A DNA stretch of 32,000 nucleotides from Acaryochloris marina MBIC11017 (lineage in GTDB: Bacteria > Cyanobacteriota > Cyanobacteriia > Thermosynechococcales > Thermosynechococcaceae), in assembly GCF_000018105.1 (NCBI RefSeq), contig NC_009925.1, positions 5,040,001-5,072,000 of the forward strand. Reading direction: 5' to 3'. Made by a program: the position numbers and the translations under genes. Below are positions 1,648-29,832 of the stretch, one piece after another. The first letter of the stretch is position 1. Each line of letters opens with the position of its first letter. The notes under the pieces are model-generated. The model searched no databases and was not told the origin of the DNA. It worked only from the letters and a program-made list of their open reading frames with translations.

Positions 1648-2502
1648 ATGCCTCCTCCAAATACCATTGCCAGCGAGATAGACACCTACGATCGCATCTC
1701 CGATGCCATTACTTTTATTCGCCAGCATCACCTAGAGCAGCCCAATCTTTCAACCATCGCCCAGCACGTCAACCTCAGCGACTATCACTTTCAGCGATTA
1801 TTCACCCAATGGGCAGGGATTAGCCCCAAACGCTTTCTCCAATACCTGACTCTAGACTATGCAAAATCGAGAATCGATCAGTCCCAGAATCTGCTAGCCC
1901 TAACCGCCGAGTCAGGACTATCCAGCCCAGGACGACTCCACGACTTATTCATCACCCTAGAAGCCATGTCTCCCGGTGAATACCGAGCAGGAGGGGCTGG
2001 GCTCAATATCCGCTACGGTATCCACGAAACCCCCTTTGGATATTGCCTAATTGCCCTTACCCCCCGTGGTATTTGCAACATTCATTTTTTGCCCAGTGCC
2101 GACGAACAAGCGAGCCAAAAGCAGCTCCAAACAGACTGGCCCCAAGCCAAAATCATCCGTGATCAAACCGCAACGGGGAACGTGTGCGATCAAGTCTTCG
2201 CCGCCTCTCCTTCCTCCCCCTTAGCCCTCCACCTCAAAGGCACCAACTTTCAGATTCAAGTCTGGCAAGCCCTCTTGAGAATTCCCCAAGGAGAACTGAC
2301 CACCTATCAAACCTTAGCCACCGCCATGGGTAAACCCACCGCCGCTCGCGCCATTGGTAATGCCGTAGGCCGTAATCCCATCGCTTATCTGATTCCCTGC
2401 CATCGGGTGATTCGGAGAACAGGAGAATTGGGAGGCTATCGTTGGGGATGCGATCGAAAAGCAGCCATGCTGGGTTGGGAAGCCAGCCAAATCAAGGAGT
2501 AA
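1648..2502 (+). CDS. AraC-family HTH fused to methylated-DNA--protein-cysteine methyltransferase (Ada/Ogt-like)
   Basis: The N-terminus has an AraC-type HTH (LSTIAQHVNLSDYHFQRLFTQWAGISPKRFLQ). The C-terminus has the MGMT active-site motif IPCHRVI followed by GELGGYRWG. Confidence 0.85.
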   Translation: MPPPNTIASEIDTYDRISDAITFIRQHHLEQPNLSTIAQHVNLSDYHFQRLFTQWAGISPKRFLQYLTLDYAKSRIDQSQNLLALTAESGLSSPGRLHDLFITLEAMSPGEYRAGGAGLNIRYGIHETPFGYCLIALTPRGICNIHFLPSADEQASQKQLQTDWPQAKIIRDQTATGNVCDQVFAASPSSPLALHLKGTNFQIQVWQALLRIPQGELTTYQTLATAMGKPTAARAIGNAVGRNPIAYLIPCHRVIRRTGELGGYRWGCDRKAAMLGWEASQIKE

Positions 2503-2538
2503 CTCTGCAAAATCTTGACCTAGAGATCAGCGCTGATC

Positions 2539-2790
2539 ATGCCAAAATTTATGGTGATCGAAACCTTCAAGCCTAATTGCCGAGACCTCGCCTACGAAAG
2601 ATTTCATCAGCAGGGACGTTTATTACCGTCCGGTCTCCACTATTTGGATAGCTGGTTAGAAGCAAACGGCAATCGATGCTTCCAACTGATGGAAACTTCA
2701 GACATCGCCCTATTTGATCAGTGGATCGCCCACTGGGAAGATCTAGTATCCTTTGAAGTGATCGAGCTGGGCGAGAAGCCACAATTATGA
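2539..2790 (+). CDS. DUF3303-family small protein
   Basis: 83 aa. MVIETFK...YERFHQQGRLLPSGLHYLDSWLEANGNRCFQLME...WIAHWEDLVSFEV matches my memory of the DUF3303 consensus. Confidence 0.7.
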   Translation: MPKFMVIETFKPNCRDLAYERFHQQGRLLPSGLHYLDSWLEANGNRCFQLMETSDIALFDQWIAHWEDLVSFEVIELGEKPQL

Positions 2791-2817
2791 GCCGATCGCA
2801 GAGTTTAGGACCATGCC

Positions 2818-3282
2818 ATGATTCGACCGACCCAACCCAAAGATAAAACGGCCATCCTGGCCATTGCTAAAGCCATTGGGTTTCAGCCAGAGGAACAGGA
2901 AACCCTGGGGGAAATGGTGGCTGACTATTTCAAGGGCAACGGTGAACTGTGGTTTACGGACGATGAGCAGGGTCCCGTCGGGGTTGCCTACTGCGCCTCC
3001 GAACGGATGACCACCGGAACCTGGAACCTGCTGTTTATTGCCATTCACCCCGAACGGCAGGGGCAAGGACGAGGCACCGCCCTAATTCACCATGTCGAGC
3101 AAACCCTGACCGCCCAAGGTGTGCGTTTGCTCCTAGTCGAAACCTCAGGCGTACCAGATTTTGAACCTACCCGCCAGTTTTATCGCCACTGCGGTTATGA
3201 AGAAGAAGCCAGAATTCGTGAATTCTATGATGCTGGGGATGACAAGATCGTGTTTCGCAAGGTCCTTAAGACCGTGGACTAG
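2818..3282 (+). CDS. GNAT-family N-acetyltransferase
   Basis: 154 aa with the acetyl-CoA binding motif IHPERQGQGRGTALI (Q/RxxGxG) and a typical GNAT length. Confidence 0.8.
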   Translation: MIRPTQPKDKTAILAIAKAIGFQPEEQETLGEMVADYFKGNGELWFTDDEQGPVGVAYCASERMTTGTWNLLFIAIHPERQGQGRGTALIHHVEQTLTAQGVRLLLVETSGVPDFEPTRQFYRHCGYEEEARIREFYDAGDDKIVFRKVLKTVD

Positions 3283-13560: not shown

Positions 13561-13676
13561 GGCTAAACTCCTTTATTGTCAGTAGTTTTGGCGACATCAA
13601 TAATCTATCAATCGGTCCACTGGTCCAGGCTCTACCGCAAGATAGTTTGATGGGTCTATCAAAAGACAGAGATCCA

Positions 13677-14939
13677 CAGGGCGACCGCACATAGAAGTTA
13701 ACAAAGCATTCGAATTAGGAAGAGGTGGAGGATAATGCCTCAAAAGCAACGCTCAGCAAGCCATGACATCCTCTCCCTTTGCCTCAATTATTGAACACTT
13801 CAGCGACTTAGACGACCCGAGAGCAGCCCACCGCATAGAGTATTCGCTAGAAGATATCATCTTCATCACCCTATGCGCTGTCCTTTGTGGAGCAGATAAT
13901 TGGGTGGAAGTGGCCAACTATGGTTGTTCCAAAGCCCAGTGGTTAAAGCAATGGATAGCATTGCCAAACGGTATTCCCTCCCATGACACCTTCGAGTGGG
14001 TCTTTGCCAGATTGAAACCTCAACAATTGCAGCAGTGCTTTCTCAATTGGACTCAAGCCATCTATCATCTGAGCGCAGGAGCACTGATTGCCATTGACGG
14101 TAAGACGCTGCGGGGCGCGATTGCAACCGGTGAGCAGCGCAGCTTGATTCACATGGTCAGTGCATGGGCCAGTCACAATCGTCTCGTTTTAGGTCAACGC
14201 ACCGTTGAGGAGAAATCTAATGAGATTACGGCTATCCCTGAATTACTGAAAATCCTAGAGCTTGAAGGAGCTTTGGTCAGTATTGACGCGATGGGCTGTC
14301 AAACCGCGATTGCCGAGACGATTATTGAGGGCCAAGGGGATTATGTGTTGGCCCTCAAAGGCAATCAAGGTGATTTATATAACGATGTGGTGCAACTGTT
14401 TGACCATGCTTGTCAGACTCAATTTCAGGGGATTGAGCATGATAGCTATCAAACCGTCGAGAAAGGGCATGGGCGAATTGAGCATCGCACCTATTGGACA
14501 ATGGGGCAAACCGATTACTTACTGGGGGCTGAGCGTTGGGCTCAATTGAAGTCGATTGGGTGCGTTGAATCGTGTCGTCGTCAGCCAGGACACCCAGGCA
14601 CACTTCAGCGGCGCTATTACCTTTTGAGCATTGAGAGTGATGCACAACGGTTTGCCGATGCTGTGCGCTCTCATTGGGGGATTGAAAACCAGTTGCACTG
14701 GATTTTGGATGTGGGATTTCGTGAAGATAAACTGCGTGCCTGTCAGGGATACAGTGCTCAAAACTTATCCGTCATTCGTCATATTGCTGCTAATTTGTTG
14801 CAGCAAGAGTCAACGGCTAAATGTGGGGTTAAGGCAAAACGGCTCAAGGCAGGTTGGGATGATGACTACCTGGTCAAGATCCTCAGCGCTGCTGCCAAGG
14901 GAATACCTGCTTCATGAAGAACTATGTGCGGTCGCCCTG
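13677..14939 (+). mobile_element. ISAs1-family insertion sequence, apparently intact
   Basis: Perfect 18-bp terminal inverted repeats: CAGGGCGACCGCACATAG (13677-13694) and its reverse complement (14922-14939). They are flanked by the identical 10-bp direct repeat CAGAGATCCA (13667-13676 and 14940-14949). One transposase ORF lies inside. Confidence 0.9.
13763..14917 (+). CDS. ISAs1-family transposase (H-repeat-associated type)
   Basis: 384 aa. The N-terminus FSDLDDPRAAHRIEYSLEDIIFITLCAVLCGADNWVEVANYG and the later IDAMGCQ and HWGIENQLHW blocks are typical of ISAs1 transposases. Confidence 0.9.
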   Translation: MTSSPFASIIEHFSDLDDPRAAHRIEYSLEDIIFITLCAVLCGADNWVEVANYGCSKAQWLKQWIALPNGIPSHDTFEWVFARLKPQQLQQCFLNWTQAIYHLSAGALIAIDGKTLRGAIATGEQRSLIHMVSAWASHNRLVLGQRTVEEKSNEITAIPELLKILELEGALVSIDAMGCQTAIAETIIEGQGDYVLALKGNQGDLYNDVVQLFDHACQTQFQGIEHDSYQTVEKGHGRIEHRTYWTMGQTDYLLGAERWAQLKSIGCVESCRRQPGHPGTLQRRYYLLSIESDAQRFADAVRSHWGIENQLHWILDVGFREDKLRACQGYSAQNLSVIRHIAANLLQQESTAKCGVKAKRLKAGWDDDYLVKILSAAAKGIPAS

Positions 14940-15496: not shown

Positions 15497-15727
15497 CTGT
15501 AACTGTGCTGGTATTGTGGGTGCGATCGCATCACTCATACCCTCAATCATTTGAGAACACCGATAATGTCCTCACAACAGCGTTGCCGTAAACCTGTTAG
15601 ATCCGCCACTGCTGACTGCCCCGCCTAACTAGTCCTAGATTTTGAAGATAATCCGGCAGTTATACAAGATTGGTCATCAATCGGATAGTGTCAGAGAAAC
15701 CCTCTTCACAAGATATGATTTCTGCCA

Positions 15728-16264
15728 ATGCCAACTCCCAAAGCTTCTCCAATCGAACTATCGCAGCAACAACACCATTGTTTGACCCAAATCGTGCGAC
15801 AAACCACCAATCCTTATCGCTTGGTACGTCGAGCAAGCATCATCCTATCAGCCGCCTCAGGCGAAAGTAACACCCAGATTAGCCGTCAATGGCAACTCGA
15901 CCGCAACCAAGTTCGCTATTGGCGTCAGCGCTGGCTTGATAATCAAGAGCGTCTTGCCCTTTGTGAGCAGGTAGACGACAGCGAAACAGAATTGCACCAG
16001 CAAGTGTTGGAGGCTTTAACAGATGCCCCGCGTCCAGGTGTCCCACCCACCTTTACCCCAGAGCAGGTGATCCAAATTGTGGCTATTGCCTGTGAATCTC
16101 CCCAGGACTCAGCCCGACCTGTGAGTCAATGGACACCTGAAGAGATTGCTGATGAAGCGATTAAACGCGGCATCGTCCCTCACCTGTCGGCCAGCAGTGT
16201 GAGACGTTTTTTGGGGAGAGGCTCAGCTGCAGCCCCATCGGAGTCGCTATTGGCTCAATGCTAA
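15728..16264 (+). CDS. IS630-family transposase, N-terminal HTH part (orfA)
   Basis: NPYRLVRRASIILSAASGESNTQISRQWQLDRNQVRYWRQRW is an IS630-type HTH. The frame ends in out-of-frame sequence after ...SVRRFLG. Confidence 0.85.
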   Translation: MPTPKASPIELSQQQHHCLTQIVRQTTNPYRLVRRASIILSAASGESNTQISRQWQLDRNQVRYWRQRWLDNQERLALCEQVDDSETELHQQVLEALTDAPRPGVPPTFTPEQVIQIVAIACESPQDSARPVSQWTPEEIADEAIKRGIVPHLSASSVRRFLGRGSAAAPSESLLAQC

Positions 16265-16280
16265 CCCTGAGGACCCAGAG

Positions 16281-16976
16281 GTGTTCGAGGCGAAAGTGCG
16301 TCAGATTTGTCAACTGTATGACTCAGCAGCTGAATTGGCAGCTCAACAGATTCACCTTGTCAGTACGGATGAAATGACGGGCATTCAAGCGCTTGAACGA
16401 CTATACCTAGACCAAGCCATGAAACCAGGGCAACCACGTCGCTTGGAATTTGAATATAAACGGCACGGTACCCTCAGTTTGATTGCCAACTGGCACGTGG
16501 CTCTGGGAAAGGTGATTGCGCCTTCTATCGGACCCACTCGAAAAGAGTTTGACTTTGCCAATCATATTGCCAATACCGTTGAAACAGCACCGGACGATGG
16601 ATGGATTTTTCTACTCGACCAACTCAATACCCATCGCTCTGCTTCCTTGGTGCGATGGGTTGCTGCTTGTTGCGGTATGGATTCAGAGTTAGGTGTTAAA
16701 GGTCAATCCGGTATTCTCAAATCGATGGAGACTCGCACAGCTTTCTTGAGCGACCCCAGCCATCGGATCCGATTTGTTTATATCCCCAAACATACCTCCT
16801 GGCTCAATCAGATTGAATGCTGGTTTAGTATTTTGGTGCGTCGATTGATTCGTCGAGGCAATTTCACCTCCAAGGATGATTTGCAACAGCGCATCCTCGA
16901 ATTTATTGAGTATTTCAATCACACGATGGCCAAACCTTTCCAATGGCAATTTAAGGGATTCCAACCTCGACTATAG
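16281..16976 (+). CDS. IS630-family transposase, DDE catalytic part (orfB)
   Basis: DDE-type blocks are present: LVSTDEMTG, FLLDQLNTHRS and PKHTSWLNQIECWFS. This frame is already open from 16203 and reads ...EAQLQPHRSRYWLNANPEDPEVFEA, the usual continuation of orfA. It is displaced by +1 relative to orfA. Confidence 0.85.
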   Translation: MFEAKVRQICQLYDSAAELAAQQIHLVSTDEMTGIQALERLYLDQAMKPGQPRRLEFEYKRHGTLSLIANWHVALGKVIAPSIGPTRKEFDFANHIANTVETAPDDGWIFLLDQLNTHRSASLVRWVAACCGMDSELGVKGQSGILKSMETRTAFLSDPSHRIRFVYIPKHTSWLNQIECWFSILVRRLIRRGNFTSKDDLQQRILEFIEYFNHTMAKPFQWQFKGFQPRL

Positions 16977-17021
16977 CTGATGAACTATTTACAGATCTCT
17001 GCACTAGGACACTCATAACCC

Positions 17022-19600: not shown

Positions 19601-21718
19601 ATGTTGAGTATCAGCATCAAAGTTCTTCCGCTAACGTCGGCTACATTGATTTTGCTGTCTCAATACACCCCTGCGATCGCAGCGTCAACCTGGATGCCGG
19701 AGTTTGATCCGGGCAAATCAGTCTATGTTGATCCAGCTTTGTCAGGGCATCCTATTGCCCCCTTCCAGTTCTCTCCCAAATTGGAGACTCAGCTCTCCCA
19801 GGAATCCAAAGAAGGTCTGCGCTATTTTGTGGTGGCGGCCCAACAAGGTAATGAGCCTATCCCTTCAGGTAAGCCCTTGGGAGTGGCAAAAGTCGATGAG
19901 CTGTTGTCAATCTGGACCACTCGCCCAGGCTTTCCCCGAGAGAACTATGTTGTCATCTTCTGGGTTCGTAAGCGTGTGAGTGTCTATAAAGGCTCAGTAG
20001 GAGTTAATGCGGGTAAAGCTGGTCGGGAAGCAGGTGTGCTTCCAGCACGGCTCTCCAGTCCCACTGGACTGGTCATTCCGGCGTTAAAAGCCAATATGCC
20101 TGCCGATCCTGAAGGGGCAATGATAGATATCGTCACCAATATTGAAAATCAAGTTACATCCTACCGAGAAACACAGGTCCGGCGTCAAAGAGCTGCTAAA
20201 GCCCGGCAAGAGCAGGAGCGGGTTGCTGCCCAAGAACGGGAGCAGTTTAACCAAAATCTTCAGTCCTGGTTGCAAGCATTCGTCAATGCGCTCCCATTTG
20301 TGGGAGGTATGGGTGGAATTGGCTTCATCCTGATGAATGGACGGCGGCGGAAAGCCAAGGCTCAAAAGCTAATTAATGAATGGTCAACCCTCTGCCAAAA
20401 TACCTCAAATCTTTATTTAGAGGTAGAAAATAATGAGCTACCGAAACTCCAGGCACTCCCCTTAGACATTGATGAGATGCTCAAGGCCAAGTTTGACCTA
20501 CTAGTGCATCGCTTAGCAGAATTTATGGCCTGGTCATCGGTTGCCAGCGAATTAGTCACCCAAGCTCAAGCCTTGTTAAACAAAGGGAAGTCTCGTCAAG
20601 CGATCTACACTCTAACGAAAGACAGTGTGATCGTTGAAAACAACAAAGTCCCAGTGGTTCTCGCCAGTTTACGTGGAGGGATCGATATTGCCCAAACGTT
20701 GATGGCTGATGAGCTTAAAAGTGGCCTAAACGATCAATGGCAATCCATAAAATCGGCTTTGAGCGAACTGCTCTCTATTCAACAAAGCTATTTGGAACTA
20801 TCCCAGAAAGATATATTCACAGTCCTACTGAAGCGTCCAGAAGAAATTTTAGACAAGCATATTCCAGAACTTAATCGTTATGGACTCCATCAAGGGGCCT
20901 TTGTGAATTCATCTCATGGGTTTGAGAACTGGGTAAGCGAATATGGGCAACTGATTCAACAGACTGAACTAGAATTCACATCCTCGCAAATCGTGAATTC
21001 AGTAGAGAACCAAAAGAAAGCAATTGAAATGCTAGATCGACTGGCATCTCGTATTCAACAAGCCGTCATGGATAAGAGAAAATGCGAGAAGGTGACCCAC
21101 CAGAATTTTTCTGGCAAGAAACTGGCAGAAAAAATTGCACAAGCTTCGACAGCCCTTGAGCAAGTAAAGACCCACTTCCCCCATGAGCCATACCTGCGAT
21201 ATGAAGCAAATGTGGAAAAAGCCTTAGCCGTGAAGAACGAGCAGTTTCCCCAGAACCACGCTCAATTTATTCAGGCTTATCAACAGAAGTATTTTAGTGA
21301 TGCTCTCAAGCGACTAGAGCAGACTCGCACTCTAGAAAAAGATTGGATGATGACCCTTACCCGAATTGTTGACTATCCAGTGAGACTTCAGGAAAAGAAA
21401 CGAATGCTGGAGAGGCAGCTAGAAAGCATTCAGCGCCGCAACCAAGCGTTGCAAAGTCGGCATCAGGTAGAGTTTGGCACCCTGGCTTGGAATTCATCAT
21501 CTCTGGACAGTCTGGAGAGCAGAATCGATGCACTTGAATATTCTGTCTCACGAGCAGAGGACGAACAACAGCGGGAATCATCTTCAAGCAGCTCTCTCTG
21601 GTCTGACGATAGCTCTTGGAACTCAAGTAGTGGATCGGATTTTAGTAGTTTTAGTGGTAGTGACTACGGTAGTAGCGGCAGCGATTATGGTAGTGGCAGT
21701 GGGGGTGGAGATTATTAA
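19601..21718 (+). CDS. Signal peptide + TPM-like domain + TM helix + long helical domain + Ser/Gly/Asp/Tyr tail (hypothetical)
   Basis: 705 aa. There is a signal-like N-terminus (LTSATLILLSQYTPAIAAS), and residues about 70-190 loosely resemble a TPM (YgcG-type) domain. One TM helix (ALPFVGGMGGIGFILM) is followed by RRRKAKAQK. The C-terminus is ...SSSGSDFSSFSGSDYGSSGSDYGSGSGGGDY. Confidence 0.75.
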   Translation: MLSISIKVLPLTSATLILLSQYTPAIAASTWMPEFDPGKSVYVDPALSGHPIAPFQFSPKLETQLSQESKEGLRYFVVAAQQGNEPIPSGKPLGVAKVDELLSIWTTRPGFPRENYVVIFWVRKRVSVYKGSVGVNAGKAGREAGVLPARLSSPTGLVIPALKANMPADPEGAMIDIVTNIENQVTSYRETQVRRQRAAKARQEQERVAAQEREQFNQNLQSWLQAFVNALPFVGGMGGIGFILMNGRRRKAKAQKLINEWSTLCQNTSNLYLEVENNELPKLQALPLDIDEMLKAKFDLLVHRLAEFMAWSSVASELVTQAQALLNKGKSRQAIYTLTKDSVIVENNKVPVVLASLRGGIDIAQTLMADELKSGLNDQWQSIKSALSELLSIQQSYLELSQKDIFTVLLKRPEEILDKHIPELNRYGLHQGAFVNSSHGFENWVSEYGQLIQQTELEFTSSQIVNSVENQKKAIEMLDRLASRIQQAVMDKRKCEKVTHQNFSGKKLAEKIAQASTALEQVKTHFPHEPYLRYEANVEKALAVKNEQFPQNHAQFIQAYQQKYFSDALKRLEQTRTLEKDWMMTLTRIVDYPVRLQEKKRMLERQLESIQRRNQALQSRHQVEFGTLAWNSSSLDSLESRIDALEYSVSRAEDEQQRESSSSSSLWSDDSSWNSSSGSDFSSFSGSDYGSSGSDYGSGSGGGDY

Positions 21719-22884: not shown

Positions 22885-22952
22885 AGGCTGGATAGGTACC
22901 GAGTATTGCGCCTCAATCATCCTGGGTCTGCTGGCAAGGCGACTGGCCGTTG

Positions 22953-23129
22953 TTAACGAGAAACTTCTTCACCCATCAGGGATGCGGCAATCGTCGCGAA
23001 TTGATTGATGCTCAGAGAAATACGTCCTTCCTGTGGGTAGGTGATGAGTTGAGTGGTGGTTAGACTCTCTGTCAGTTGCCTAATCATTTTTATGGGCACG
23101 TTGCGGTCTTGTTCACCGTAGAATCCAGA
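22953..23129 (-). pseudogene. Orphan C-terminal fragment of an alpha/beta hydrolase (58 codons + stop)
   Basis: My own translation of the minus strand is SGFYGEQDRNVPIKMIRQLTESLTTTQLITYPQEGRISLSINQFATIAASLMGEEVSR*. This is the G..D..vP (catalytic Asp) to GH (catalytic His, here GR) segment of alpha/beta hydrolases. A TGA lies directly upstream and there is no start. It is below the ORF-track length cut-off. Confidence 0.65.
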
Positions 23130-23721
23130 TCAAGGATATTTGAATTTCTTCTAAATTGAAGTCCCACTCATGGGTATATAAATACTTCTTTGGCAGTTTT
23201 GAAGAAGTTATCTATTTATCTTGCATTATCTTGAGCACATTTTTAAATAAACTTAATAACCAAAACAACACCAAAGAGCACAAAAAAGCATTTTTATTCT
23301 GATTCTTTACTTATAGGCTTCTATATAGATAGAAGCCCAATTAGATGCTGCGTTGGTGTTGAGGATTCTGTTAGTTATACTTCTGAGAGTGAATTTTGCC
23401 AAATTATTCGATTATCAATAGCATTTATCCCCTACTAACTCTGGGTTCTAGTCTAATAAACATCATGCAGCGCGATGCTCAGGAATAAGTATTGTGTAAG
23501 CGCTTTAAATTTCTGTTCGCGCCCCTGATGACATGGTTGCTAGGAGATGAGGGATGCAACCAGCTCATAACAAAGGACTCTAATTTATTGCATAAGTAAT
23601 TTTGCTGTAGAGCTATATCTAGATACGGATGAACCAATCAAGTGGATTGCTGTAAACACAAGAAGGGAAATTTGAGTAAGCGCTGCGCCAAAGATTTTGC
23701 ACTTAATAGTCAACTAAAAAT

Positions 23722-24765
23722 ATGCTATATCTTGAGCCCAAATATATAGATGCAGTAAAAAATGTTTCACAAGCTGCTGACTTATACTCTCTTTTGCAAA
23801 ATGCGATCCAGCTTGAGCATTCAACTATTCCACCATACTTAACTGCAGCATATAGTCTGAAACCTGCAAACAGCGAAATAAGGCGAATCATAGCTAACAT
23901 TGCTGCAGAAGAAATGTTGCATATGGCAATTGTTGCAAATATACTTAATGCGATTGGTGGATCCCCACAAATTTCTATTCCGGAATTTATTCCAAAGTAT
24001 CCAACTACATTACCGATGGGCATCATTGGTGGATTAGAGGTTGGGTTAGAAAGATTCTCCAAAGACTTAGTAAAGAATAAGTTTATGGAAATTGAGCAAC
24101 CGGAGAATCCTATTTTCGAAGAAAATGATTCTACCTCAACTGGGGCTTCAAGTTCTGATCTCGTAACAATTGGCGACTTCTATCGGGAGATCATAAATAA
24201 AATAAGTGAACTTGGAGATGATATTTTTACTGGCGATCCTGAATTACAGGTTGTCATGGGTGCGGGATTTCCCATTAGTCAGCTCTTTCCAATTACAAAT
24301 AGTGATACAGCAATTAGATCTCTTGAGTGGATTATTAAAGAGGGTGAAGGGACAACTAGACTACCCTTCGATGATGAAGATGAGCCAGCTCATTATTATC
24401 AATTTGAGGCAATTTTTGAAGGCCGCCAGCTTGATCCAGATGCAGAAGAAGAAGAAGAAGGGTATCCTTACACAGGTCGAGAGATTCGCTTCGATCCCTC
24501 AGAAGTCTGGGACTTTCCTAGTAACCAAAAAGCAGCTAACTATCCAGACGGTTCAGAAGAACGCAGGAGAGTCGATCAATTTAACCTAGCTTATTCAAAT
24601 ATTCTACGAGTCTTACAAGAGGCCTTCAATGGTAAACCAGAAGAAATAGGTGAATCAGTTTTCCTGATGGGAGGACTTAGAAGATTTGCACGAGATGTTG
24701 TTTCTAGGACTGATCCAAGGACAAACATGAAATGCGGGCTTACCTTTGAATTTATTGAAGAGTGA
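23722..24765 (+). CDS. Ferritin-like domain protein (VioB/RebD-type ferritin-like fold)
   Basis: 347 aa. LLQNAIQLEHSTIPPYLTAAYSL and AAEEMLHMAIVANILNAIGG (E...ExxH) are typical of the Pfam Ferritin-like family. There is an acidic insert (DPDAEEEEEGY). First gene of the low-GC operon. Confidence 0.8.
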   Translation: MLYLEPKYIDAVKNVSQAADLYSLLQNAIQLEHSTIPPYLTAAYSLKPANSEIRRIIANIAAEEMLHMAIVANILNAIGGSPQISIPEFIPKYPTTLPMGIIGGLEVGLERFSKDLVKNKFMEIEQPENPIFEENDSTSTGASSSDLVTIGDFYREIINKISELGDDIFTGDPELQVVMGAGFPISQLFPITNSDTAIRSLEWIIKEGEGTTRLPFDDEDEPAHYYQFEAIFEGRQLDPDAEEEEEGYPYTGREIRFDPSEVWDFPSNQKAANYPDGSEERRRVDQFNLAYSNILRVLQEAFNGKPEEIGESVFLMGGLRRFARDVVSRTDPRTNMKCGLTFEFIEE

Positions 24766-24836
24766 GAAATGCATATTTTTCGCAATTATTCTAGATGTCA
24801 ACAACACAAATAATGCAATCAGAATAGGAGAAAATA

Positions 24837-26042
24837 ATGGCTTTCCCGAGCGATTTTAGCAATGTTGAAATTTGCAAGATTCATCCTGCAATTGGTATTG
24901 CTAGAGTATCTAATAATGACGATTTCTATATTTTCGGAAATGATCCAGGAAATTACAAATCAGGTGGCTTAATAAAGAGGCAGGCTGTTCAATTTAGAAT
25001 TTTTGTCTATGGAGAAAATAATGTCGGTCTTGGAGAGTTGACACCTCAGGTCATGAGTGATCTCGGTATTACAGCAATTTGGTCTGCTAAGGTAGCAAAT
25101 CGAAAGATTGCTAGATTGGAAGGTACCCCATTAAGCGGCAATGAGTTTGTCATCTCTGCTGAGGCCACATCAAACGATGCAAATAGTGGACAACTTGTTG
25201 GTTCGTTACCAGACTTTGATGAAGGCTCTGCAATACCTTTAGGCCAAATTACACGTGAAGGCGTGTTCATCCCTCCAAAAGGTGGTGTCTATAGGAAATC
25301 ATCTGGTGTTGAAATTGAGCCTTATCCTGCATTATCTGCACAAGTTGCTGACACAAGTTGTGATGGTTCAGTATCAGTGAACCTCACTATAGATGGGGCT
25401 GGACAAATTGAAGTTCTACCTGCATGTATCATAGTTGCTCCACAAGACTTCTCTCCTGATACAAATGAAGGATATACACTAAATGAATATCTAAAGGATG
25501 CTTTAGATATTCCACTGAAAAGAGAGTTGCCACCTGTTGACAATATACATAATCAGACTGCACGTGAAATTGATGAAGAAGCTCTTAAAACTGGAAGTGC
25601 TGATTTTGCTCCTGGATATGAAGTTTCATTAGGTGGGCGTGGTGAAGTTTTAGATATTAGAAATCTTGTTTATAGAAGTCAAGATGATCCTAGGATTGAT
25701 CCTCGAGAAGTAAGAATTCTCTACAAGAATAAACAAAACAAGTTAGAGCCTCGTGGAGCAGTACCAGGACAGTTGACTAGTGGTTTATGTTCTTCATGGC
25801 AAGGTGATTTTACAGCTTGTGTGGGCTATTGGGTAGAACATTTGCCACCAAACGCCTTCTTGGATGAGGACGCTTCAACAGAAGTTCGTGTTTTCAGAAA
25901 GCAATATTCTGATACATCTTCATCAGCTGAAGAATTGCGAACAGGTGAAGAATTTAATATAGGAGTAGATAAAGTTGGTATCGTTCGTTTGAGAGAAAGT
26001 CGAAAAGTAGAAACAGAACGTGATCCAGGAGATGATATCTAA
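24837..26042 (+). CDS. Short LodA/GoxA-like protein (putative cysteine-tryptophylquinone oxidase)
   Basis: 401 aa with AGGAG 8 nt upstream. N-terminal blocks are CKIHPAIGIARVSN, IKRQAVQFRIFVYG, IWSAKVANRK, CDGSVSV and APQDFSPD. The C-terminal block is LCSSWQGDFTACVGYWVEHLPP. These match the LodA N-terminal domain and the WQADFxxC...YWWPP quinone-site region as I remember them. Confidence 0.7.
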   Translation: MAFPSDFSNVEICKIHPAIGIARVSNNDDFYIFGNDPGNYKSGGLIKRQAVQFRIFVYGENNVGLGELTPQVMSDLGITAIWSAKVANRKIARLEGTPLSGNEFVISAEATSNDANSGQLVGSLPDFDEGSAIPLGQITREGVFIPPKGGVYRKSSGVEIEPYPALSAQVADTSCDGSVSVNLTIDGAGQIEVLPACIIVAPQDFSPDTNEGYTLNEYLKDALDIPLKRELPPVDNIHNQTAREIDEEALKTGSADFAPGYEVSLGGRGEVLDIRNLVYRSQDDPRIDPREVRILYKNKQNKLEPRGAVPGQLTSGLCSSWQGDFTACVGYWVEHLPPNAFLDEDASTEVRVFRKQYSDTSSSAEELRTGEEFNIGVDKVGIVRLRESRKVETERDPGDDI

Positions 26043-26152
26043 GCTTAGAATCAATCAGTTGCTAATCCTTTACTGGAGAATCTTTCTTAGGCCATGGATA
26101 GGTGATTGCAACTGATTCTCCTTCGATACTAATCATTGATTGTAATCAGGCA

Positions 26153-27514
26153 ATGATACAAATCATGTCCCAATACTCCTCTAAGTTAAAGATGCCGAAT
26201 GTACATCTGTTTCGAGCAGAAGAGCATTCTATGCTGCTATCTATTGAGCAAGGTTCAATATATGAAATCGATGATATTTACGCTGAGATGCTCGATCGAT
26301 GGATGGAATTTGGTGAAGTAGAAAGAGTGCATCAAGTATTATCGGCAAAGGGAATACATCTGAATTCAGTTCCTCCTGAGGCTCCACCTAAATCTATTCC
26401 AATTCATGCACTCTCTCTAGCCATAGCTCAAAAATGTAATCTTGGTTGCACCTACTGCTATGCCCATCAAGGTAGCTTTGGTGGCAATGAAGGTAGTATG
26501 TCTTTTGAGGTCGCGAGGAATTCTATTGATCTCTTGTTGAAAGGAACAGAATCTGGAGAAACAGTTTCCTTAGCCTATTTAGGAGGAGAACCTTTAGCCA
26601 ATCGTTCTGTTTTGCAGAAAACAACAGAATACACTATTGCCAAAGCTTCTTCAGTGGGAATTAAGACAAACTTCTCATTGACAACGAATGGAACATTGTT
26701 GACTGTTGAAGATGCAGAGTTTTTTAATAATCATGGCTTTTCTGTCACGATTAGCATTGATGGAAATCAAGAAAAACATGATTTCCTAAGACCATTTAAA
26801 TCAGGAAAGGGAAGTTACAAAACGGTCATAGAAAAAGTAAAACTTTTATTAGATATTCCTCACCGACGTTGTCGAGTATCCGCAAGAGTTACAGTGACAC
26901 CTGAAAACTTGTGTTTGGAAGAGACTCTGGACAAACTCGTTTCACTCGGCTTTGATAATGTCATGTTCTCTCCAGTTCTGAAATCACCAACTGGCCTACA
27001 TCAAATGGGAGAATTTGAATTTGAAGTGCTGCTAAATCAAATGATAGAGTGTGGCCAAAAATTTGAGCAGAATTTTGAAGATCACAAGATCTATCCCTTT
27101 GCAAATATACTGAACACGCTTCAACGAATACATCATTATAGATGTGACGCTTACCCCTGTGGCGCAGGAGGAGCCTATTTGGGTGTTTCTTCAAAGGGAG
27201 ACTTGTATGCTTGTCATCGATTTGTTGATGATGCTCAAGGTTCAATGGGAAATATCGTAGATGGTGTTGATCCTGCTAAGCAAGAGAATTGGCTGGCGGC
27301 CAGAAATGTGCATACTCAGGAACCATGCAAGGCTTGCTGGGCACGATACTTGTGTGGAGGCGGTTGTCATCATGAATCAATTTACAGAGGTCGACCTGCC
27401 TGCGATTACATTCGCGGTTGGTTGCATTACTGTTTAGGCGTATATGTCAAGCTTCTTAAGATTAATCCTTCACTCCTGGATCAGATTTTGAACAACCAAT
27501 CTGTTTCTGGATAG
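26153..27514 (+). CDS. Radical SAM / SPASM-domain enzyme (anSME/QhpD-like maturase)
   Basis: CNLGCTYC (CxxxCxxC, nt 26435-26458), GGEPL, and a SPASM-type Cys cluster: CDAYPCGAGG...YACHRF...CKACWARYLCGGGCHH. The ORF is open from GTG 26102. The first ATGs are at 26153 and about 26192, so the start is uncertain. Confidence 0.9.
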   Translation: MIQIMSQYSSKLKMPNVHLFRAEEHSMLLSIEQGSIYEIDDIYAEMLDRWMEFGEVERVHQVLSAKGIHLNSVPPEAPPKSIPIHALSLAIAQKCNLGCTYCYAHQGSFGGNEGSMSFEVARNSIDLLLKGTESGETVSLAYLGGEPLANRSVLQKTTEYTIAKASSVGIKTNFSLTTNGTLLTVEDAEFFNNHGFSVTISIDGNQEKHDFLRPFKSGKGSYKTVIEKVKLLLDIPHRRCRVSARVTVTPENLCLEETLDKLVSLGFDNVMFSPVLKSPTGLHQMGEFEFEVLLNQMIECGQKFEQNFEDHKIYPFANILNTLQRIHHYRCDAYPCGAGGAYLGVSSKGDLYACHRFVDDAQGSMGNIVDGVDPAKQENWLAARNVHTQEPCKACWARYLCGGGCHHESIYRGRPACDYIRGWLHYCLGVYVKLLKINPSLLDQILNNQSVSG

Positions 27515-27522
27515 CTATCGAA

Positions 27523-28944
27523 ATGGGAACCAAGGACCAAACCACTTTTGATGTCTGTGTGATCGGTGGTGGTCCTGCAGGCTCAGTAGTATCCCATCGT
27601 TTGGCATCGTTAGGATATAAAGTATGCATAATTGAATCCCAAAAGTTCCCTCGACCTAACCATATTGGGGCTTCACTACTTCCCAGTACTTTGCCTTTAT
27701 TAGATTGTATAGGAGTACGAGAGTCTGTTGAAAATACGGGATTTCTCCTCCACGAGCGCACAATTGTTTGGTGGTCAGAGACTTTTCCTATATATAAAAA
27801 TCAACATGAGCAGCCTGGATTCCATGTGGATCGTGGCCAATTCGATCAATTACTTTTGCAGAATGCCAAAGAGAATGGAGTTGAAGTCCATCAACCAGCT
27901 CATGCATTTCGTCCGGAAAGGATCAAGACTCAGAAATGGCAGATTCGCATCCGTCAAGATGGAATGCAAAGAACGATACTATCTAAAATAGTAGTTGATG
28001 CATCTGGTGGGCGAAGTCTAGTTCCCGGACGCCGGATTCTAGCATCAGCTCCTCTTCTAGCTTTGTATGCCTATTGGAAAGGCACAAATTTTCAGACAAT
28101 TGAAGCACGTATTGAAGCGGGAGAAAGTGAGTGGTTTTGGTATGCACCTTTAAGTCAGAACAAAGCAGTTACTGCAGTTTTTCTTGATCCCAGTTGCTTA
28201 TCTCTAAACTCAAAACAAGGAATTGAAAATATATATCACAAGTTACTGAATCGATTCAGATTGTTCCCTGCTAAATTTATCAAAGGTATTGAGGGTAAAG
28301 TAAAAATATGTGATGCATCAACTCGGTATGCAGAGAACCCTATAGGAGACAGCTTTATTCGAATTGGAGATGCCTGCTTATGTTTAGACCCATTATCTTC
28401 TCAAGGTATTCAGTCAGCAGTAGCTTCAGGCTTGCAAGCTGCAATTATCATCAATACTTTTCTCAAATATCCTGAAGATACAGAATTGGCAATTTCCTTT
28501 TATAATGCTCGCCAAAAAGAAAAAAGAAACGAATACATAACAAAAACGGCTAGTTTTTATCAACAAGTCGCTGCTGTTCGTAATAAACTATTTTGGCATC
28601 AGAGGGCTACTTTTCCTGAAGGTCAATTAGCTCCTATTCTTAAGACAAAAAGTTTCGATGGTAATTGTAAAATTCAACTATCAGATCATGCATATATGAA
28701 CTCTACACCCATAATCGAAGGAAATAGAATTATCTCTAAGCATGCTTTATATCATGATATGTTATCTCGTCCAATAGCATTTGTTGGTGGAGTGGAAATA
28801 GTACCTTTGTTGAGAAAAGTTAGTCCAGGGACAACAATACAAGATATCTTACAGGTTTGGTCGAAGAATTTGCCAGTTGAGCTTAGCTATAATATTATGG
28901 CTTGGCTTTGGATTCGTAAAATCATTGTTCCTTTTCATCTATGA
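27523..28944 (+). CDS. FAD-dependent oxidoreductase/monooxygenase (LodB/QhpG/halogenase-like fold)
   Basis: 473 aa. FDVCVIGGGPAGSVVSHRLASLGYKVCIIE (GxGxxG), KFPRPNHIGASLLP, EWFWYAPL and IRIGDACLCLDPLSSQGIQSA (GD...DP..S.G). The start is 8 nt after the radical-SAM stop. Confidence 0.85.
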   Translation: MGTKDQTTFDVCVIGGGPAGSVVSHRLASLGYKVCIIESQKFPRPNHIGASLLPSTLPLLDCIGVRESVENTGFLLHERTIVWWSETFPIYKNQHEQPGFHVDRGQFDQLLLQNAKENGVEVHQPAHAFRPERIKTQKWQIRIRQDGMQRTILSKIVVDASGGRSLVPGRRILASAPLLALYAYWKGTNFQTIEARIEAGESEWFWYAPLSQNKAVTAVFLDPSCLSLNSKQGIENIYHKLLNRFRLFPAKFIKGIEGKVKICDASTRYAENPIGDSFIRIGDACLCLDPLSSQGIQSAVASGLQAAIIINTFLKYPEDTELAISFYNARQKEKRNEYITKTASFYQQVAAVRNKLFWHQRATFPEGQLAPILKTKSFDGNCKIQLSDHAYMNSTPIIEGNRIISKHALYHDMLSRPIAFVGGVEIVPLLRKVSPGTTIQDILQVWSKNLPVELSYNIMAWLWIRKIIVPFHL

Positions 28945-29010
28945 TTGATACTCGATTCTCAGAGTTGATTTCTCAACAGAAACTAAAGTTACTGATTGAT
29001 GCGTAAGTAG

Positions 29011-29109
29011 TCAAATAAAATAGCCATAAATCATGGCTTCACTCGTTTCTGGATAGAGTTCGTAATCCTTCCCCAAACGACGATAGCGATTCAGGCAACT
29101 AAAGGTCGT
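29011..29109 (-). pseudogene. IS5-family transposase C-terminal remnant
   Basis: My own translation of the minus strand is TTFSCLNRYRRLGKDYELYPETSEAMIYGYFI*. This is the conserved C-terminus of IS5-group transposases (..W..R.RRL.KDYE..PETSEAMIY..). A TGA lies directly upstream, so only about 32 codons survive. Confidence 0.55.
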
Positions 29110-29184
29110 GCATCAAAAAAATGTGGGATCTCGATTTACAAAGGGTTTCAGTCTTTTTGGAGTATCTCCTGTAAGCCTTTAGTG

Positions 29185-29832
29185 TTAGATGCCTGAGCGA
29201 TTGTTACAGATTTTTTCACACTTTTCTAATGCACAACCGATAGACTCCATGCAACCCACCTGCGCTAGGGCTGTATAGTCTGCTGGGGGCAGTTGGTTCT
29301 TGAATCTAGCTAACACTTTTTCTGGATCACCCTTGAGTGACTGTGCCAGGAAGGATTGCCAAAGTTGGTAGAGTATCGGCACTCTCTTCATAAAGAAGAA
29401 CATTATGCGGCTCATTGGGGAAAGATCTTCAGCAAGATCCATCTGCCATGCCCCAGAAACAATAACAGCAGAATGGAGTCTTTCAGGCATCTTGGCGACA
29501 CAGACTGCGACATATCCACTGCCGCCAGACATACCCAAAACAGAAAATTTATCTAAATTGAGTGCATTGGCAAGACACTCTATATCATTGACCCAGTCGG
29601 AGAATCCTCGGTGCGGTTGAAAATCAGATTGCCCAAGCCCAGGACGATCGGGGGCAATCAGCCTCATCCCAGCTCGCTGAATGTTCTCATTGCCTAATAC
29701 CAATGGCTCTAAGCGACAGGAGGGAGAACCATGAAAATAGAAAACGGGATATCCCTGAGGATCACCATATTCAGCGTAGGCTAACTGTCGCTGATCCGGC
29801 AGGGTGAGAAAAGTGGTAATTTCCATGGTCAT
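29185..29832 (-). pseudogene. Alpha/beta hydrolase, N-terminal 215 codons (truncated; decayed continuation to about 29112)
   Basis: VFYFHGSPSCR (oxyanion HG) and VLGMSGGSGY (GxSxG nucleophile elbow) are present, but there is no Asp/His segment. After an A6 run (plus-strand T6 at 29211-29216) the +1 frame continues SVTIAQASNTKGLQEILQKD*NPL*IEIPHFF, which is hydrolase-like with two stops. The missing C-terminus is the fragment at 22953..23129. Confidence 0.75.

Follow-up and report, generated by a model that had tools for sequence, protein, structure and literature searches.

An AT-rich block with a four-gene cassette, probably acquired horizontally, splits an alpha/beta-hydrolase gene in Acaryochloris marina MBIC11017

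An alpha/beta-hydrolase gene on the chromosome of the cyanobacterium Acaryochloris marina MBIC11017 exists as two pieces that are separated by about 6 kb of AT-rich DNA carrying a four-gene cassette. Both pieces lie in the 32,000-nucleotide (nt) stretch of DNA that we analysed (the window), whose positions are used throughout. Five proteins encoded in the window match MBIC11017 records exactly: ABW29984 (AM1_5018), ABW29987, ABW29988 (AM1_5022), ABW29990 and ABW29991. The hydrolase gene was broken after codon 196 by 6,060 base pairs (bp) of foreign DNA that replaced codons 197–217, and it is probable that the cassette was acquired horizontally and that the joining took place by a route other than transposition. 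The inserted block occupies positions 23179–29238, stands in place of 63 bp of the hydrolase gene and is absent from the related Acaryochloris sequences L007, L075, L076/L077 and L001.

In alignment, the two pieces cover successive, non-overlapping parts of one protein (amino acids (aa) 1–196 and 218–291), as had been proposed in an earlier reading of the letters of the window (the sequence-only reading). The N-terminal fragment (29239–29832, minus strand) comprises orthologue codons 1–196, with the ATG of the orthologues at position 29826, and its MBIC11017 record (ABW29991) describes a 213-aa ‘alpha/beta hydrolase, putative’. It opens a minus-strand open reading frame (ORF), 29832→29185, whose first 196 codons are 93–94% identical in nucleotides to intact 291-aa orthologues (L001, L007, L075 and L076). 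The fragment matches Pfam Abhydrolase_1 with 49.4 bits (cutoff 25.8; 6e-13), and its GMSGG nucleophile and HG oxyanion motif (FHGSPS) fall in columns that are invariant in 12 homologues, so that its assignment as a hydrolase N-terminus by the sequence-only reading stands. Homology stops at position 29239, which corresponds to orthologue nt 588, after the residues MESI.

The C-terminal fragment (22953–23178, minus strand) comprises orthologue codons 218–291. Secure homology starts at position 23178, or orthologue nt 652 (YTHEWDFNLEEIQISLIW...), and ends at the stop codon at 22953. The sequence-only reading had correctly identified this piece as the Asp/His end of the protein with its catalytic His codon changed to CGT (Arg), but had placed its start at 23129, which is just past a +1 frameshift (extra A at 23124); YTHEWDFNLEEIQISLIW lies upstream of this frameshift. 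The fragment is 79–81% identical in nucleotides to the four intact orthologues and is collinear with them through the intergenic spacer into a gene for a 158-aa protein. Of the invariant alignment columns (HG, GMSGG, GEQD and EGH), the window retains all but the His: the GEQD acid is kept, and the invariant catalytic His269 of EGH is replaced by Arg (CGT at 23024–23022), the codon being CAT in all four orthologues. A query composed of both fragments retrieves P0001, an intact 291-aa protein, at 79% identity over 99% of its length, along with hundreds of relatives of 286–300 aa that are mostly cyanobacterial among those that are named. The hydrolase is dead, with its Asp/His parts separated from its Ser part, its His mutated and its frame shifted. 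It has neither the catalytic His nor the single continuous reading frame of a functional hydrolase, given the 6,060-bp split, the loss of 21 codons and the +1 frameshift.

Four related Acaryochloris assemblies carry the intact 291-aa hydrolase, and the search for an intact orthologue at an unoccupied site, which the sequence-only reading had proposed, thus succeeded four times over. In L007 (Acaryochloris sp. IP29b_bin.137, returned by a scan of one representative genome per species), L075 (an assembly from ENA) and L076/L077 (Logan assemblies), it is flanked by an LDH-like gene and the 158-aa gene, and the flanks are 93–96% identical in nucleotides to the window. L007 has the LDH-like gene, the intact hydrolase gene, the 158-aa gene and a DUF4112 gene in this order, collinear with the window on either side of the block: L007 positions 98–1713 match window 30854→29239 at 93.6%, and L007 positions 1777–3247 match window 23178→21740 at 82%. 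The closest relative, L075, is 95.8% identical over the right flank and 92.9% identical over 2.4 kb of the left side, including the C fragment. The gene for P0001 resides on Logan contig L001 directly downstream of the LDH-like gene, as in the window, and L001 shows 94% nucleotide identity to window 32000→29239. The arrangement of LDH-like gene, intact hydrolase gene and 158-aa gene in the relatives is a true empty site.

The block also differs from its surroundings in base composition, and it does so in GC content, in GC content at third codon positions (GC3) and in tetranucleotide usage, the three measures by which the sequence-only reading had suggested checking its impression of AT-rich DNA. 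GC content is 0.392 in the block (23225–29238) and 0.487 in the remaining window, and in a sliding window it drops from 0.45–0.52 to 0.34–0.43 across positions 23001–29000. GC3 is 0.22–0.32 in the four cargo genes compared with 0.43–0.57 in six flanking genes or gene pieces, and tetranucleotide usage departs most from that of the remaining window within the block, at a distance of 0.35–0.39 compared with 0.15–0.26 elsewhere.

Relatives of the cargo point in the same direction. The sole cluster with more than 71% identity to the cargo is MBIC11017 itself, and the next best match has 71% aa identity. Named matches come from Acidobacteriota, Gammaproteobacteria (Leucothrix), Verrucomicrobiota (Chthoniobacteraceae) and Rhizobiales (Mesorhizobium and Bradyrhizobium), and from no other cyanobacterium. 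The order of the four genes is preserved in distant phyla: the same set occurs, with unrelated flanks, in L066 (a JGI metagenome contig), L067 (ENA) and L068/L069 (ENA and Logan; with a Thermoanaerobaculia protein). The cassette was probably acquired by horizontal transfer from a low-GC, non-cyanobacterial source. The horizontal insertion put forward by the sequence-only reading is upheld by the empty sites, the foreign composition and this distance to the nearest relative outside the strain.

These observations bear on accounts that involve no insertion at all, in which either the block is ancestral and was lost from the relatives or the two pieces are remnants of unrelated paralogues. Sister strains do show deletions at the locus (L070, described below). 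However, four independent relatives have a continuous frame across the junction, and a precise excision that restores 63 bp is not credible. The low GC3 of the cargo genes and the lack of a named match from another cyanobacterium also argue against an ancestral block, and the way in which both pieces line up with one orthologue, and with the genes on either side of it, argues against paralogue remnants. We consider such accounts extremely improbable.

The limits of the block follow from the two ends of hydrolase homology. Hydrolase nt 589–651 (21 codons) are undetectable on either side of the block, and thus the block measures 6,060 bp and replaces 63 bp. The sequence-only reading had counted only a few codons as missing and had traced a degraded continuation of the N fragment through 29238→29112 (TKGLQEILQKD, stop, NPL, stop, IEIPHFF); both proposals fail. 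This segment aligns to the hydrolase no better than controls do, aa 218–240 lie in the C fragment, and 29116→28957 is IS5-family sequence. Codons 197–217 were sought both in 23224→23179, a 5′ extension of the C fragment, and in 29238→29112, and the two candidates were rejected, with scores like those of shuffles or of island segments. In this order, their p values in local alignment were about 0.03 and 0.06, where 12 of 156 control chunks reached equal scores, and in anchored alignment 22% and 39% of controls were as good.

Read along the hydrolase strand, the block consists of 122 bp, 160 bp from the 3′ end of an IS5-family insertion sequence (IS), 12 bp, the four-gene cassette on the opposite strand and 543 bp. 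The four intact genes and the IS remnant are as the sequence-only reading described them, while the leader that it put at 590 bp measures 543 bp. The first 122 bp (29117–29238) are AT-rich (GC 0.377) and unassigned, and they account for most of the continuation proposed by the sequence-only reading; the hydrolase ORF runs 18 codons into them, with the last base of its stop at 29185. They show no significant similarity to hydrolase nt 589–720, to IS copies or to the genes flanking related cassettes, and have no Rfam match. At the other end, hydrolase nt 589–651 have no significant match in the part of the 543-bp stretch that adjoins the C fragment. A search of the block edges for remnants of the genes that flank related cassettes (tyrosinase, GerE and OmpA-like) found none.

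The IS stub (28957–29116, minus strand) is a 5′-truncated IS5-family remnant that consists of the 3′ 160 bp of the element, including its terminal repeat, and encodes TFSCLNRYRRLGKDYELYPETSEAMIYG. It shows 87% identity to the IS that follows the intact hydrolase gene in L001, and 88% to a copy carried by plasmid pREC4 of A. marina MBIC10699. With tblastn it matches the C-terminal end of an Anabaena cylindrica protein that is annotated as an IS5 family transposase (3e-14, 24 of 34 aa). Only the last approximately 34 transposase codons are retained, and the Pfam DDE_Tnp_1_2 score of 13 bits is below the cutoff of 29.2. The stub shares the C-terminal motif NRYRRLxKDYE...SEAMIY and the same terminal sequence with IS5-family elements of the DDE_Tnp_1_2 type (A. 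cylindrica pANACY.02 and Acaryochloris pREC4). In contrast to those elements, the stub is the last 160 bp only and lacks a transposase, a left end and a target duplication, and is thus inactive in its present form. By its sequence similarities, the IS type is native to Acaryochloris, and the stub would thus not have come from the donor of the cargo. Plasmid searches located the stub’s IS on pREC4 and yielded no copy of the cassette. Positions 29238→29117 were also considered as further IS transposase sequence (EILQKD resembles EVIQRN by eye), and tblastn, Pfam and alignment to three IS copies gave no support.

The orientation of the stub is informative with regard to the joints. Its intact terminal repeat points to the cargo, 12 bp from the stop codon of the last gene, and its broken side points to the hydrolase. 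Since the inner side of a truncated element faces the hydrolase, the joint between hydrolase and block does not correspond to the end of an IS. When up to 3 mismatches are allowed, the whole window still has a single match to the 21-nt IS terminus, such that no second IS end was found. The joints, at orthologue nt 588 and nt 652, have no target-site duplication, and no microhomology could be shown there. Given that target duplication and paired ends are missing and that 63 bp are lost, the joints do not look like products of transposition.

The sequence-only reading had instead favoured an IS-borne unit that transposed into the hydrolase gene, with a degraded continuation to 29112 and a uniform decay that dates the split. 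Some features agree with this scenario: an IS5-family remnant sits at the block edge, 12 bp from the last cargo gene, the C fragment is frameshifted and has lost its catalytic His, and the block is compositionally foreign. Nevertheless, the proposed delivery is circumstantial, as it depends on a single 160-bp stub with no second end, duplication or transposase; this stub is 5′-truncated, turns its inner side to the hydrolase, and is of a native type rather than of a donor’s type. The supposed continuation overlaps codons that are held by the C fragment and scores like random segments, 63 bp are gone from the target, and the N fragment carries no signal of decay. We consider this scenario as a whole very unlikely.

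As for how the block did enter, illegitimate or homology-assisted recombination at a rearrangement hotspot of the genus is most likely. The IS stub would then be incidental or an anchor rather than a proven means of delivery. It might be a relic of an earlier stay of the cassette beside an Acaryochloris IS, or a later insertion that was subsequently eroded. Homology-facilitated illegitimate recombination has been described for naturally transformable bacteria. The locus resembles its outcomes in that foreign DNA is joined without transposition signatures and with the loss of some recipient DNA, and in that a native-type IS stub, a possible homologous anchor, lies at one end. It differs in having no recipient IS copy beside the N fragment and no microhomology at the joints, and the parallel is a mechanistic analogy only.

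The sequence-only reading had also assumed that the split dates the insertion and that the hydrolase has been decaying as a unit since. The two halves have not diverged equally. Differences that are private to the window relative to the four intact orthologues number 15 of 540 (2.8%) in the N fragment and 21 of 180 (11.7%) in the C fragment (Fisher p=1.3e-5). Within the N fragment, they comprise 6 of the last 55 nt by the junction and 9 of the other 485 nt. The edges, meaning these 55 nt together with the C fragment, differ from the rest with Fisher p=1e-7, and tests of clustering gave p=0.002–0.04. Nonsynonymous and synonymous codon changes on the window branch stand at 8:15 in the N fragment, like those of intact genes, and at 12:5 in the C fragment. 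The N fragment has an intact frame and no signal of relaxed constraint. Fourfold-site divergence from L075 is 0.42 in the C fragment compared with 0.14–0.23 in the LDH-like gene, the N fragment, the 158-aa gene and the DUF4112 gene (p=0.016; 19 fourfold sites). Changes on the window branch are not AT-biased. The C-terminal part is also the more variable among intact orthologues (7–13% versus 5%); for example, the C part of L007 differs by 13% from L075 and L001, and its N part by 5%.

These numbers are at odds with a single in situ insertion after which both pieces decayed uniformly and neutrally. Because the N fragment appears constrained and the C fragment has diverged strongly, the split provides no date for the event; it delimits the insertion only. 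The identities of 81% (C) and 94% (N) are not proof of separate origins, since the C part is more variable in intact orthologues too. A seemingly sharp left boundary of the private differences is partly an artefact, as the closest strain, L070, enters the alignment at position 22895.

These patterns raise the possibility of a mosaic history, in which the block and the hydrolase edges (about 29295 to about 22900) are older or more divergent than the flanks. Either the locus came, already interrupted, from a more divergent Acaryochloris lineage that has not been sampled, or the flank with the LDH-like gene and the N fragment was replaced at a later time by sequence from a strain whose gene is intact. 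As the simplest addition to the insertion explanation, a crossover by homologous recombination would lie about 55 nt within the N fragment, and such a history would refine that explanation rather than replace it. The concentration of private differences by the junction and in the C fragment, the contrast of 8:15 with 12:5, the fourfold-site divergence and the presence of mosaicism nearby (L007 matches the window at about 94% on the right side and at 82% on the left, with the unequal C and N parts noted above) all favour it. However, the databases hold no second Acaryochloris lineage with the cassette, but a single cluster followed by matches at 71% identity. In addition, the counts are small (19 fourfold sites), the greater variability of the C-terminal part in all lineages makes the excess partly regional, and the left end of the divergent tract is unplaceable, with L070 aligning only from 22895 downwards. 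We therefore entertain a mosaic history as a tentative addition, with a chance somewhat short of even.

Returning to the reading of a horizontally acquired block joined without transposition, several points weigh against it. The strongly differing divergence of the hydrolase pieces is not explained by one insertion and uniform decay. The mode of joining is deduced solely from missing transposition signatures, and erosion after the event could account for the missing 63 bp and for the lack of a duplicated target and of a second IS end. As to a donor of the cassette, none of the sampled relatives has a GC content like the 39% of the block: it is 50% in the closest cassette (71% aa identity) and 63–65% in others. 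Finally, the scan of representative genomes missed the split gene of MBIC11017 itself, although the N fragment contains the search motif GFSDWVND; either another strain represents the species or this stretch lay outside the scan.

Sister-strain loci, fetched by means of homologues of the 158-aa protein, show that the hydrolase gene has been disturbed elsewhere in the genus. The A. marina chromosome AP026075.1 (L070), which its accession series suggests to be that of strain MBIC10699, lacks the sequence of window 22896–29740 and retains the first 23 hydrolase codons, with a GGATA microhomology at the joint (L070 10477–10600). In Acaryochloris sp. CCMEE 5410 (L072 10488–19560), unrelated genes (HNH, Uma2, FG-GAP/hemolysin-type and NB-ARC/WD40) fill 9 kb between two breakpoints that nearly coincide with those of L070. 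L001 has a degraded IS5-family element of the same type and orientation as the stub 40 bp past the hydrolase stop (L001 9462–10343), and its synteny with all other strains ends there. The comparison with sister strains that the sequence-only reading had advised therefore gives a mixed picture, in that intact empty sites were found and the gene proved also to have been lost independently, in L070 and L072. The hydrolase, destroyed at least two times independently, is evidently dispensable, and the site is a recurrent rearrangement hotspot in Acaryochloris that has experienced insertion, deletion, replacement and IS arrival in different strains.

Identity between L007 and the window is about 94% on the right side of the site and only 78–82% on the left (L007 1777–4417 versus window 23178–17487), and L007 lacks the 705-aa and PNP_UDP_1 genes (window about 18.6–21.7 kb). 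The contrast between left and right identity and the gene absences suggest a mosaic history of the region. The 705-aa protein (window 19601–21718) has no Pfam match, is kept in A. marina strains and is predicted to have an N-terminal hydrophobic stretch and a Ser/Gly/Asp-rich tail. Two further insertion sequences (window 13675–14939 and 15633–17004) are missing from the otherwise collinear L070. One carries a gene for a 384-aa transposase with DDE_Tnp_1_assoc and DDE_Tnp_1 domains; the other is a two-ORF element with helix-turn-helix (HTH) and DDE_3 domains, which we read as IS630-like from this domain content.

The four cargo genes are all open and full length, with the same lengths as their homologues, and all lie on the plus strand. 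The first (23722–24765; ABW29987) encodes a 347-aa ferritin-like protein of the PF12902 family (Pfam Ferritin-like 6.8e-74) with weak similarity to part of VioB. The second (24837–26042; AM1_5022, ABW29988) encodes a compact, 401-aa LodA/GoxA-like protein. The third (26102–27514) encodes a putative radical SAM/SPASM maturase of 470 aa from a GTG start that is closest to QhpD: it scores 322 bits with the NCBIfam model TIGR03906 (quino_hemo_SAM), under the cutoff of 453, and matches Pfam Radical_SAM, and a PapB-type thioether maturase is its second-best model. The fourth (27523–28944; ABW29990) encodes a 473-aa flavin adenine dinucleotide (FAD)-dependent monooxygenase that is QhpG-like or LodB-like, with 285.7 bits for the NCBIfam QhpG model NF049967 (cutoff 240), 141 bits for LodB (cutoff 400), a GoxB score below the cutoff, and matches to Pfam Trp_halogenase and FAD_binding_3.

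The 401-aa protein passes the Pfam LodA_N model with 47.9 bits (cutoff 26.3). Its predicted fold, with a predicted local distance difference test (pLDDT) score of 89 and a predicted template modelling (pTM) score of 0.92, resembles LodA/GoxA chains in 50 of the 50 PDB matches listed by Foldseek, the best with an E value of about 1e-11 and a template modelling (TM) score of about 0.4 over the query. The equivalog models give 36 bits for GoxA (cutoff 750) and 30 bits for LodA (cutoff 600), and thus the protein is neither LodA nor GoxA itself. Cys328 aligns with Cys516 of LodA, the cysteine of its cysteine tryptophylquinone (CTQ) cofactor, and Asp324 aligns with LodA Asp512. Residues C318, W321, Q322, D324, C328 and W332 are invariant in 26 homologues of 40–71% identity, forming an invariant motif C-x2-W-Q-x-D-x3-C-x3-W. 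No Trp of the protein can be aligned with LodA Trp581, and the invariant W321 and W332 are mere candidates.

Two groups of known systems resemble this cassette. LodA/LodB and GoxA/GoxB are quinoprotein amino-acid oxidase systems with a CTQ cofactor from Marinomonas and Pseudoalteromonas, and ferritin-like genes (PF12902) adjoin fungal lodA-like genes (PMC4417212). The maturation of quinohemoprotein amine dehydrogenase involves qhpD, which encodes a radical SAM former of thioether bonds, and qhpG, which encodes a Trp dihydroxylase; QhpG and LodB/GoxB are treated as parts of separate systems (PMC7876137). The cassette shares with the LodA/GoxA systems a protein that passes LodA_N, has the same predicted fold and retains the Cys and Asp corresponding to Cys516 and Asp512. 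It also shares with them a downstream gene for a LodB/GoxB/QhpG-type flavoprotein, here the last gene, and a PF12902 ferritin-like neighbour, as found beside the fungal lodA-like genes (PMC4417212). In contrast, the cargo protein has 401 aa rather than about 680–790 aa, the lodAB and goxAB operons lack the radical SAM/SPASM gene that the cassette has between its oxidase-like and flavoprotein genes, and of the only invariant Trp residues of the cargo protein, one precedes the conserved Cys by 7 residues and the other follows it by 4, whereas the Trp of LodA/GoxA lies tens of residues downstream.

Likewise, the cassette agrees with the qhp system in that its flavoprotein scores above the QhpG cutoff and QhpD is the best model for its radical SAM protein. 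It differs in that the QhpD score is under the cutoff, qhpA, qhpB, qhpC and genes for a protease or an exporter are lacking, and the presumed substrate would be the 401-aa LodA-like protein rather than a small gamma subunit; the four genes of the block include no cytochrome, beta-propeller or small Cys-rich subunit. Judged by its predicted proteins, the cassette mixes elements of two known CTQ systems. Our literature search found no paper that describes this four-gene combination, which is conserved in at least 3 contexts and among the 26 diverse homologues. The cargo might represent a third, undescribed tryptophylquinone system, in which a compact LodA/GoxA-like protein would be served by QhpD-like and QhpG-like maturation proteins and a PF12902 partner, encoded in a fixed cassette that moves between phyla and in this case arrived in a cyanobacterium, a proposal that we advance with caution.

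The 543 bp between the hydrolase C fragment and the cargo operon (23179–23721) are AT-rich and non-coding, with no ORF of at least 60 aa and no Rfam family, and promoter-like and terminator-like sites are no more frequent there than expected by chance from shuffled sequences. A perfect 9-bp stem with a 4-nt loop (GGCTTCTAT ATAG ATAGAAGCC) is present at 23316–23337, upstream of the cargo operon, and has no Rfam match and no T-run.

The locus has much in common with strain-specific genomic islands, including atypical composition, an empty site in relatives, cargo with kin in other phyla, a mobile-element remnant at one edge and two pseudogene pieces. Unlike typical islands, the block lacks a tRNA target, an integrase, flanking direct repeats and an intact mobility gene: a tRNA search found none as an integration target, and the block contains no integrase-like ORF and no meaningful terminal repeats. 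Moreover, instead of a duplication the target shows a loss of 63 bp, and the block is small (6 kb) and holds a single operon. The genome of A. marina MBIC11017 is known for its heavy IS load and gene flux. As genome evolution, the event is ordinary, a case of routine gene acquisition, and it is the cargo that is unusual.

Thanks to the empty sites, the split gene offers a clean textbook case of a strain-specific block in a dispensable gene. It also illustrates that pseudogene decay beside an island is unusable as a clock where homologous recombination is active. We judge the cargo and the hotspot to be worth following up. If the cassette is functional, it would provide a compact model for the building of protein-derived quinone cofactors.

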